This document shows positions 34,301 to 40,974 of a stretch of 64,000 bases of DNA, in pieces. Position numbers and translations under genes: made by a program. The notes below the pieces were generated by a model. The model searched no databases and had not been told where the DNA came from. It saw nothing but the letters and a program-made list of their open reading frames with translations. This DNA is from Podarcis cretensis (Eukaryota): NCBI GenBank assembly GCA_951804945.1, contig OX638154.1, forward strand, positions 34,410,001 through 34,474,000, written 5' to 3'. Positions within the stretch are counted from its first letter, which is position 1, and each line of letters opens with the position of its first letter.

Positions 34301-35746
34301 TTTCTTGTGGCTTTGTGGTGCCCAACCATCTGTGAAGGGATTGTAGTGTGTGTTGGGGGGGCGGGACTCTGCAGTGGCTGAACCAGTGATAGGGGAATAG
34401 GATAGCTCTTGTGAATACAGAAGTCAGCCATTGCAGATCCATAGGGCCCCCTTTCAGATCTAATGATAGTAAAGCATTAAGACACACAGCAGAATTGATT
34501 ACATAGCCATTCTATGATAGCATTGCCCACGTGAACTGTTTAAAATAGCATGCTTTGATGTTAATGCCTAGTAATGAGTTTAGGGATTTTACAAAGGGGG
34601 GGGGGAATGAACCATCTCAAGCCATCCGAGCCTTGTCCAAATCCCATAATTTCTGTGTACTTATCCATAAAATGATGTAGAGTCCTACTAACATATAATC
34701 ACTTGTGTAAATGATGCATAGTAACTAGCTCGCTGTAGCTGCATGCAGGGAGCGTTCTGCAGAATCCATTGTTAAAGCTTTTAACCTGGTCTAGGTCACT
34801 TCAAGCTGCAGGTGTAGCTCACAAAGCAATGCTATGTATGCCTACTTGGATGTAACCCTCATGGAGTTGGTCCCACATGAGTGTATATAGGATTGCAGCC
34901 TCAGCTGATGCATTGTACATGCTTCCATCAAATTTATCAGTTAAAATTTGACAGAATAAGTGTACTTTCTTGTTTTGTTTTTACATAATGCAGGCGTAGC
35001 AGATACTTTTTTAGAGGTTTTTCCTCATATAAGAGAGTTTTTTAAATCAATATTTCCAGTTACAAACAATTCTTTTGAGTGGATTAAAGCTTCGGTCCTA
35101 TAAGCACTTGCCTGGGAACAAGTTTCATTGAACTCAATGGGGCTTCTTTCTGAGAAGGCAAGCTTAAGATTGCACTGTAAAAATTCAATCTGAGCAATCC
35201 AGTGATTTAAACATTGCAGCCCTAGTCACATACAAATCACATGCATCAAATTTTGCGTGCATCATCTCATCTTTGCAGCAAGCTCTTGTTCAACCAAAAA
35301 TACATGCTATTTCTGATCAGGATTTTCCCCCCAATTAGATTGTCACCCTGTTGTGATCCTCTGCTCCTTGCCCATTAATCCCAGAACAATCCCACTGCTC
35401 CTAAAGCCTGACATGTGGGAACAAACCAGCAACTATCATTTCCAGCCTTTAAAAAAATAAGATCAACTGAGCACCTACTGAACTTCAAACGGAAGTAGTA
35501 TACCATAATACTAATTTCTCTTTTTTGCCTCCCATCCAGAAAGTGCAAGTTGTGATTACTGTGCTGGATTATGACAAGCTGGGGAAGAACGAAGCCATTG
35601 GCAAAGTATTTGTCGGCAACAAATCCACTGGCACGGAGCTAAGGCACTGGTCTGACATGCTGGCCAACCCACGCCGTCCCATTGCCCAGTGGCATTCCCT
35701 GAAGCCTGAAGAGGAGGTGGATGCAGCTCTTGGGAAAAACAAATAG
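19186..35746 (+). CDS. SYT2: Synaptotagmin-2, spliced CDS join(19186..19396,20562..20722,27392..27520,28893..29060,29318..29485,30893..31010,31993..32126,35540..35746), 1296 nt, 431 aa
   Basis: All introns are GT-AG with compatible phases. The product has a luminal N-terminus, a TM helix plus Cys cluster, an acidic linker, C2A and C2B. SYT2-type residues include NEINKIPLPPW, DFQANQ, KNEAIG and the GKNK end. It is convergent with PPP1R12B, as in mammals. Confidence 0.97.
19550..19591. repeat. Perfect 21-bp tandem duplication
   Basis: atgatgtatactcaggacatc occurs twice in tandem. Confidence 0.95.
20562..20722 (+). CDS. SYT2: SYT2 coding exon 2 (TM helix, Cys cluster, basic stretch)
   Basis: ttttcag acceptor. 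Encodes (L)[53 protein letters not shown]. Donor gtaaaa. Confidence 0.96.
22260..22465 (+). mobile_element. tRNA-derived squamate SINE
   Basis: agctcagt...gtttgatcccc A/B-box head and a ctggagagctgctg body. A related copy lies at 36855-37027 in the SYT2 3' UTR. Confidence 0.7.
22703..22870 (-). mobile_element. CR1 3' end fragment (further fragments near 23110-23240 and 31515-31760)
   Basis: Reverse-complement similarity to the 3' UTR of the CR1 at 3230-3642. Confidence 0.7.
23636..23930. repeat. Interspersed fold-back repeat family rich in aaccatg/catggtt/ctaagcc motifs (also near 28115-28500 and 61200-61500)
   Basis: Recurrent internally inverted motifs at three loci. The family is not assigned; a DNA-transposon derivative is likely. 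Confidence 0.45.
26500..27130 (-). mobile_element. CR1 ORF2 internal (endonuclease-linker) fragment, degraded
   Basis: Minus-strand translation KFLDTLND...[21 protein letters not shown]...KMRGLVKR, with frameshifts. Confidence 0.65.
27392..27520 (+). CDS. SYT2: SYT2 coding exon 3 (acidic linker, start of C2A); alternative start at 27401
   Basis: Acceptor ttctcttccag. Encodes [43 protein letters not shown]. Donor gtaagg. Confidence 0.94.
28893..29060 (+). CDS. SYT2: SYT2 coding exon 4 (C2A)
   Basis: Encodes [56 protein letters not shown]. Flanked by cag and gtgaga. Confidence 0.97.
29318..29485 (+). CDS. SYT2: SYT2 coding exon 5 (C2A)
   Basis: Encodes [56 protein letters not shown]. Flanked by cag and gtaagg. 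Confidence 0.97.
30130..30345 (+). mobile_element. MIR/CORE-like tRNA SINE (opposite-strand copy near 33295-33530)
   Basis: tRNA head gtggtatagaggttag...ggactagg and core tctctcagcctaacctacctcacagggttgctgtg. Confidence 0.7.
30893..31010 (+). CDS. SYT2: SYT2 coding exon 6 (C2B)
   Basis: Encodes [39 protein letters not shown]. Flanked by cag and gtgagt. Confidence 0.97.
31993..32126 (+). CDS. SYT2: SYT2 coding exon 7 (C2B polybasic region)
   Basis: Encodes [45 protein letters not shown]. Flanked by cag and a weak gttcat donor. Confidence 0.96.
32463..33275 (-). mobile_element. Solo LTR (813 bp), probably Gypsy-type, antisense in the last SYT2 intron
   Basis: TGTCAG...CTGACA termini, a perfect 5-bp TSD gacac (32458-32462 and 33276-33280), minus-strand AATAAA near 32531, and CpG-rich sequence. 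Confidence 0.88.
33690..34080 (-). mobile_element. L2-clade LINE 3' fragment
   Basis: [13 protein letters not shown]...[11 protein letters not shown]-terminal motif plus 3' tail. Confidence 0.82.
34608..34695 (+). repeat. Core of a diverged direct duplication, partner at 40690-40777
   Basis: Hand alignment gives 75/88 identical without gaps. Confidence 0.9.
35540..35746 (+). CDS. SYT2: SYT2 coding exon 8 (end of C2B, stop)
   Basis: Encodes [68 protein letters not shown]. Acceptor cccatccag. Confidence 0.97.
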
Positions 35747-39745: not shown

Positions 39746-40974
39746 GTGTGATGTATTATGTAAAGCTTACAAACGTCACTTCCTTCCCTGGATTGGCAAT
39801 TCATGCTTCTAAGCAGTGTCACTTGAGGCTTACCGGTTCTTAATTCACACTAAAGAAAGGTGTGTGTGTGGGTGTGGGTAGCAGAATCTATGTGGCACTC
39901 CAAATTGCCTCATTGACAATCATGCAATGGCTGCAAAATTCATAAGGTTGGATAGAGAGCTGCCTTTTTGTGAATGGAAAGGACTGGAATCCAGCAGAGG
40001 CTCTTGCTGAAAGGAATTGGGGCAACTTTCACCATTCCCCATCTTCCATGTTCTCTGGAAGAGCTTTTCAGGATGAAGTCATCCTGGCCTCCTGGAATTC
40101 TGCTTGTGGGAAGTCTGGATCCAGCTCATAGCTTAAATTTACCTTGAGTTAGCATTTATATTGCCAATTCACATGTGGCTATAAAGGTGATGTCTACGTA
40201 AACAGATGGCAGTAAGATACAAAGTAATCTATAGCCTCATAATAAGATACTGTGCATGTGGATGCATATATCTATTGATATTTCAAGAGGCATGTAGACA
40301 GTTTGTGAGGGCTCAGGTGAGCATTGCATTGAAGATGCCTCCATATCAATAGTGGTTATGGGCATAGATTAATCTTACTGAATTAGAACAAATATGTTTG
40401 AAGAATTTGAATTTTTGCAAGCAAAAAGGATCAGACTGCACTGCAAAATGGCAACATCGCCACACAAACCCAGTTCTGTTAATTTTCTCCTGCTGATAAA
40501 CGATCCAGGGTGTCCTCTTTGAAACCAATGATGTGGAAATATTAGCACTAAGAACCAGGTCAGAACACACAGCCATTAATGAATGGTGTCTCCAACTTCT
40601 ACAGTTTAAAATGGGGGAGCTGTAACTTTAATACACAATATAAATGTATTTTGGTTTTAATTTCTTTTTCTATAAAGGGGGAGAAAAAGTGAACCAACTC
40701 AAGCCATCTGAGCCTCATCCTAATCCCATCATTTGTGTGTACTTATATATAAAATGATATAGAGATCTATTAACATAAACGAAACCCTCTTGTAAGCAAT
40801 GCATGATGCCTAGCCAGTATGTAAGTAGCAGCAGCATGCAACGAGCAGAACCCATAGACCATGTGTGTCATTGCCCATTTTCTAGAATACAGTCAGGCTA
40901 CAGAGTTATTTTTAAAATGTGGTGTGAATGAATTTATTTTACCTAATAGGATGGGGGGAGGGGACTGTAAAAAA

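Follow-up and report, generated by a model that had tools for sequence, protein, structure and literature searches.

Among short duplications present in exactly two copies, the closest described systems are the repair-mediated duplications of Pace et al. (2009, PMC2671141), which are attributed there to synthesis-dependent strand annealing that copies nearby DNA into a break. The human set reported in that work holds 824 two-copy duplications of up to 619 bp lying within 5 kb, with 11 donors in 3' untranslated regions (UTRs) and 295 acceptors in introns, and the class is also recorded from chicken, zebrafish and mammals. Two further kinds are the doublets (Thomas et al., as related in PMC2671141), which are near-identical duplicons shorter than 100 bp, and the duplicated most-conserved elements of presynaptic genes (Hadley et al. 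2006, PMC1794582). Here, we describe a pair of diverged segments in a 64,000-nucleotide stretch of Podarcis cretensis DNA (assembly GCA_951804945.1, contig OX638154.1, positions 34,410,001 to 34,474,000 of the forward strand; hereafter the window, numbered from its first letter), one copy lying in the last intron of SYT2, which encodes a fast calcium sensor in neurotransmitter release, and the other likely in the distal 3' UTR of the same gene. We lean towards a reading in which constraint on the UTR copy alone, with or without early gene conversion, accounts for the way in which the pair has diverged, the intron copy being the relic of an old repair-type duplication.

With the repair-mediated class the SYT2 pair shares two copies that are non-tandem, closely linked, a few hundred bp long and tail-less, in an intron and a 3' UTR, locations that are both on record, and by analogy it would work like a member of that class, while lying outside the strict proximal group in which donor and acceptor are at most 5 kb apart. 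It is far more diverged (~72% identity) than the duplications of PMC2671141, its breakpoint signatures are unreadable, and it interrupts no recognised transposon, unlike the pairs that the method of that paper requires; nor do the relevant passages there describe a two-tier identity profile such as the one reported below. With the doublets it has in common a short local duplication in exactly two copies, differing in its length (~390 bp) and its age. Like the pairs of PMC1794582 it is non-coding and confined to one presynaptic gene region; those pairs, however, are defined by cross-species conservation of both copies, whereas this one is defined by the similarity of its copies in one genome, and 88% of them join like with like (exon-associated or not), whereas this one joins an intron to a likely UTR. 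The passages of PMC1794582 that bear on the matter report no non-exonic homology among SYT1, SYT2 and SYT5 and a few within-gene duplicated elements, SYT2 not being named among them. A literature search over titles and the opening lines of abstracts, mostly of papers outside subscription, found no description of the SYT2 pair, which thus seems undescribed, though of a known kind.

An old duplication around the last coding exon

The two copies are most alike in a core, 34608-34695 against 40690-40777, in which 75 of 88 positions are identical without a gap, just as the first-pass annotation of this DNA had noted. This core pair is the top direct-repeat family of the window, and its start-to-start spacing is 6082 bp (the 6.08 kb of the annotation), with both copies in the same orientation and the last coding exon between them. 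BLAST of the window against itself returns 34587-34695 with 40668-40777 at 81.8% over 110 columns (E 5e-23), and a sensitive BLAST of 30000-35540 against 35690-46000 yields a single significant pair, 34436-34769 with 40502-40855 (65% over 357 columns, E 2e-29), the runner-up standing at E 0.065.

Weaker similarity had also been claimed for the flanks, over about 34435-34810 and 40500-40905. Because permissive local alignment produced spurious long 'flanks' of 55-62% identity at other local pairs, we retested the flanks by extension anchored at the core edges, in which the ends are not picked by eye; for the left and the right flank alike, and under two scoring schemes, none of 500 genomic controls matched in guanine-plus-cytosine content reached the observed score. 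The pair is a real, old duplication, and both of its flanks are homologous. The duplicated unit spans 34436-34812 and 40502-40903, or ~390 bp in the same orientation, with a right border (34812-34825 / 40903-40917) that varies with the scoring; the copies are ~72% identical over aligned columns and are separated by ~5.7 kb. Similarity leftward of 34436 is not significant (z -0.45 and -0.71), and rightward extension past the 34821-34900 small repeat likewise falls short of significance (z 0.3 to 1.6). The pair thus has the properties of a two-copy non-tandem duplicon, being at least 50 bp long (~390 bp), represented in one other place more than 50 bp away, and without a tail or a family.

Contigs from genome runs of three related organisms span 34070-35500, and all carry copy 1 at ~2% divergence from the window; judged by these divergences, the duplication is some 20 times older than the splits from the three relatives. 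None of the matching runs listed is on record as RNA. A further run, X15, which we guess to be RNA, gave no contig over copy 1 and one low-depth contig of 151 nt at 34153-34300, such contigs being a record of presence and not of expression.

Copy number

The annotation had seen no match to a recognised repeat and had proposed counting the copies genome-wide, and the count bears it out. Three patterns over different parts of the core, each allowed 3 mismatches, were run over 1.5 Gb and matched 2, 3 and 2 times, against 0, 2 and 0 for reversed-pattern controls, that is, the two copies and one further match at chance level. This extra match of the second pattern, in sequence L006, was rejected as a third copy, being at control level and failing to extend beyond ~39 columns. 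By hand arithmetic that leaves indels aside, the chance that at least one pattern would catch a third copy is about 8 in 10 at 15% divergence and about 2 in 10 at 25%, so that copies more than ~25% diverged elsewhere in the genome could escape. A profile built from both copies gave no third match below E 1.8 in 1.86 Mb (including 400 kb on either side of the window), and the core pattern had no match in metagenomes. A whole-genome DNA search with either copy found only the query itself and missed its partner, which makes it uninformative on copy number. In the genome assemblies of the three relatives no extra contigs fall on copy 1, while neighbouring small repeats do pile up; as even the letters of copy 2 failed, at 80% likeness, to align to the core of copy 1 in all 4 runs, this lack of extra contigs makes a weak test. 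On these sequence searches, an unannotated repeat family is unlikely.

Two small multi-copy repeats lie close by in the last intron, at 34821-34900 and ~35095-35181, and foreign contigs pile up on both in all four runs.

Uneven decay of core and flanks

Identity between the copies falls in a sharp step, from ~0.83 in the core to 0.5-0.7 in 30-column windows of the flanks, and the Kimura two-parameter distance rises from 0.17 to 0.41. We simulated decay from a common ancestor, keeping runs in which flank identity and gap count matched the observed pair and counting as a success any gap-free window with at least 75 of 88 identities, under rate settings of our own choosing. Uniform rates produced the observed core in 0/712 runs and patchy neutral rates in 13/537; a frozen UTR core combined with patchy rates did so in 30/400, and a frozen UTR core combined with an intron core slowed to 0.6 of neutral, a setting that also stands in for a partial reset, in 137/559. 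Under this model uniform decay is rejected, and the core appears to have been slowed or reset by something. A better-kept core would also follow from early gene conversion, from rates that vary along the segment or from constraint confined to the UTR copy. The better-kept middle is a weak hint of function.

The three relatives give a view of more recent change in copy 1. Among the substitutions and indels listed (40 of 60 and 12 of 15), with 35095-35190 left out of the background because it is swamped by repeat contigs, copy 1 has 13 substitutions in 377 bp (3.4%) against 27 in 958 bp outside it (2.8%), and at columns where the two copies match it has 9 listed changes in 263. The core of 88 bp shows 1 listed change where 2.8 would be expected (P=0.24), a comparison of low power given relatives ~2% diverged, and 3 changes private to run X7 in the contig covering the core fall outside those listed and may lie in the core. 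The suggestion made at first pass, that a gap-free core within decayed flanks is compatible with constraint, stands in part: the core has kept more identity than uniform decay would leave, while the flanks of copy 1 change at the rate of the surrounding intron and look neutral today.

Tests for RNA and coding signals

An RNA element, structured or small, had been offered as one explanation for the two copies, with Rfam as a check, and this candidate was dropped. A search of 33500-42000 gave only chance-level results, namely 7 weak matches far below the gathering threshold, two of which touched copy 2 (E 9.5 and 6.9) and none copy 1. Folding of both cores on both strands against shuffled sequences found no stable fold (z +2.1, -0.6, +1.9 and +0.3), and the two-sequence consensus fold of the cores is weak and scattered.

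A coding exon relic was likewise rejected, as none of the 6 reading frames is open in both cores and the 13 core differences fall 5, 6 and 2 by codon position, with no third-position bias. Both cores contain the heptamer AAGCCAT (34619-34625 and 40701-40707), which we take to be a match to the miR-135 seed site; this reading was set aside, since a seed site in an intron would have no effect and no paper title or abstract linking the two was found.

Local duplications elsewhere in this genome

An all-against-all comparison of 1.86 Mb of the genome (181 sequences) provides a base rate for pairs of at least 50 bp that are unique within the sample. There were 84 such pairs, 17 of them 50 bp to 20 kb apart (the SYT2 pair included), 64 farther apart and 3 tandem. 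As pairs at up to 20 kb make up ~2% of the pair space, local pairs are enriched about tenfold, at ~9 per Mb, so that a local pair as such is ordinary; uniqueness here is within the sample, and the 17 may include some low-copy repeats or paralogous exons. What sets the SYT2 pair apart among the 17 is solely a core better kept than both flanks.

Among the other local pairs, a second direct pair has an arm in the window (3083-3144, with 7596-7659 of sample sequence L029), with sharp ends, 91% identity over 64 columns and a spacing of 5.4 kb, and a very young duplication on contig C1 (L101:789-1198 / L101:4114-4523) is 99.8% identical over 410 bp at 2.9 kb. An old inverted pair (L068:5595-5686 / L068:7687-7780), 77% identical over 94 bp and with a significant diverged flank on one side, is the closest analogue of the SYT2 pair within the sample.

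Origin and constraint of the two copies

In the account that we favour, a break in the last SYT2 intron would have been repaired with the distal 3' end of that gene, which lies close by, as the template. Sequence near poly(A) sites generally tends to be constrained, and for this reason we infer the direction to have been from UTR to intron. Selection on the UTR copy near its poly(A) signals would then have kept the core of 88-110 bp similar: with the UTR core held, divergence between the cores would proceed at half the pace, identity would remain above ~80%, and early gene conversion may have occurred. The intron copy would be a relic. Conversion tracts are reported to be mostly 50 to several hundred bp long and to require ~80% identity or more (PMC3924818), and conversion is said to slow as copies diverge (bioRxiv 10.1101/135152).

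Several observations weigh against this account. Conversion falls steeply with divergence, and the spacing of 6082 bp exceeds the 5-kb cut-off of the confident class in PMC2671141, a cut-off that is called ad hoc in that source. In the simulations a frozen UTR core with even rates reached the observed core in only 14/632 runs and a UTR core at 0.3 of the neutral rate in 0/682, as compared with 92/593 when both cores evolved at 0.35. The intron core, with 1 substitution and no indel among the changes listed for the three relatives, leans, non-significantly, to constraint, and that single change, common to all three organisms, turns the letter to that of copy 2. Finally, the SYT2 pair is alone among the 17 local pairs in having significant diverged flanks on both sides, two others having one such flank.

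An alternative is selection on both cores as a DNA-level regulatory element, for instance an enhancer for SYT2 or for the convergent gene PPP1R12B, which would work as well in an intron as in a UTR; we regard this as doubtful. It would explain the sharp identity step and agrees with the absence of RNA structure, with the 0 listed changes at the 75 matched core columns in the three relatives, and with the duplicated conserved elements described within one presynaptic gene region (PMC1794582). Under the simulation settings, two-copy constraint does 2 to 7 times better than a frozen UTR core alone (92/593 against 30/400 and 14/632), which is a weak preference. On the other hand, the deficit of change in the core of the relatives is not significant among the substitutions listed, the cores still differ at 13/88 sites, and most repair duplications are reported to diverge about neutrally (PMC2671141). 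The fuller version, in which the last intron long ago received a copy of a regulatory element from the 3' end that SYT2 and PPP1R12B share and selection has since maintained both cores of 90-110 bp, giving a second enhancer in the reptile lineage, we hold to be unlikely, a shade more so than selection on both cores as such. That neither copy has a function, the core being better kept through a conversion tract or locally low mutation rates, seems to us improbable: the core length fits typical conversion tracts (PMC3924818), patchy neutral rates occasionally give the observed core and the pair was singled out for its very appearance, but uniform decay never does so, and an unconstrained tract would have to convert at ~25% divergence, where rates are very low.

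Two further explanations appear far less probable. The annotation had offered a 3'-end tandem duplication of the gene, with the pair as its relic, and to this larger event, of last exon and UTR, may be added the truncated 3' end of a reverse-transcribed mRNA; the shared orientation and the end of copy 2 some 70 nt short of the first AATAAA would suit either, and a collinear patch (35020-35080 with 40975-41042) seemed to carry the similarity on to the poly(A) signals, being reached by 11/500 shuffles with its ends picked by hand. Once the ends were not hand-picked, however, 328/1000 shuffles reached it, and because neither the last exon nor the end of the intron has left a relic upstream, both tandem 3'-end duplication and retrocopying are disfavoured; the similarity is limited to ~390 bp, no other intron-UTR similarity was detected, and copy 1 ends without a poly(A) tail, so that this idea did not survive beyond a very slight chance. 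Slighter still is the chance that an unannotated ancient repeat, conserved in its central domain, inserted twice to give the two copies. Some old groups of short interspersed elements have a conserved centre with decayed flanks, as does this pair, and the whole-genome DNA search, having missed the partner copy, is too insensitive to exclude a family alone; against this stand the three patterns, which at 3 mismatches gave no credible third copy, the extra match not extending, the profile, which found nothing further in 1.86 Mb, and the relatives' assemblies, in which adjoining small repeats pile up and copy 1 does not.

If constraint on the UTR copy is the correct explanation, the pair in itself matters little, as one of ~9 local duplications per Mb, though an unusually old one, and it would mark a candidate conserved block in the 3' end of SYT2. 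If both cores proved to be conserved, it would instead offer a clean and datable example of DNA repair duplicating a regulatory element within a key synaptic gene, with each copy serving as a control for the other.

Gene context

The gene that holds the pair is a paralogue resembling synaptotagmin-1, to which the end of its C2B domain has a strong but imperfect match, and the name SYT2 rests on this sequence together with its position beside PPP1R12B, the two genes being adjacent in human tables (PMC3732286). Reading on from the stop codon along the plus strand, AATAAA is first met at 40975 and then at 41018 and 41040, and ATTAAA occurs earlier, at 38499 and 38968. Since the first AATAAA signals lie beyond copy 2, this copy likely sits in the distal 3' UTR. 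The features are collected in Table 1.

Table 1. Features of the SYT2 3' end and its neighbour in the window
Feature	Positions	Strand	Basis
Last SYT2 intron, GT...AG	32127..35539	+	Exon translations and borders
Copy 1 (putative acceptor), within the last SYT2 intron	34436..34812	+	BLAST and anchored extension; present in 3/3 relatives' genome assemblies
Copy 1 core, gap-free; purine run 34587-34607 directly before it	34608..34695	+	75/88 identical to copy 2 core
Small multi-copy repeat abutting the right end of copy 1	34821..34900		Borders by eye; foreign contigs pile up at 34838-34933
Last coding exon of SYT2, end of C2B domain and stop	35540..35746	+	Synaptotagmin-1 C2B end, E 6e-35, not identical
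Copy 2 of the duplicated segment, likely distal SYT2 3' UTR (putative donor)	40502..40903	+	BLAST and anchored extension
Copy 2 core, gap-free; ~200-260 nt upstream of the AATAAA cluster	40690..40777	+	Alignment and signal positions
Cluster of three AATAAA, probable 3' end of SYT2; no sign that the duplication extends to it	40975..41045	+	Signal scan; extension test not significant
Last coding exon of convergent PPP1R12B, PRKG1-interacting domain; 3' UTR heads towards copy 2	50431..50514	-	Pfam PF15898, E 5e-13

A minus-strand poly(A) signal (TTTATT on the plus strand, at 41009) lies back to back with that of the plus strand (AATAAA, 41018), and a further TTTATT is found at 40933. From the positions of these signals, SYT2 and the convergent PPP1R12B may end in one zone just to the right of copy 2.

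The left edge of the copy 2 core carries on the minus strand, at 40670-40693, a pentamer resembling a branch point, then a pyrimidine tract of 15 nt and TAG, and so looks like a splice acceptor in the direction of PPP1R12B; at the position corresponding to this TAG copy 1 has TAA, and the likeness may be due to chance.

Other repeats in the window

Near-perfect hairpin elements occur at 1297-1434 and 16496-16664, with arms of 62 and 70 nt that are 95% and 93% complementary, respectively, and are likely miniature inverted-repeat transposons. The window also holds two inverted copies, 15743-16156 and 52319-52740, 67% alike, of a fragment with an open frame that resembles the end of a protein of the long interspersed element type.

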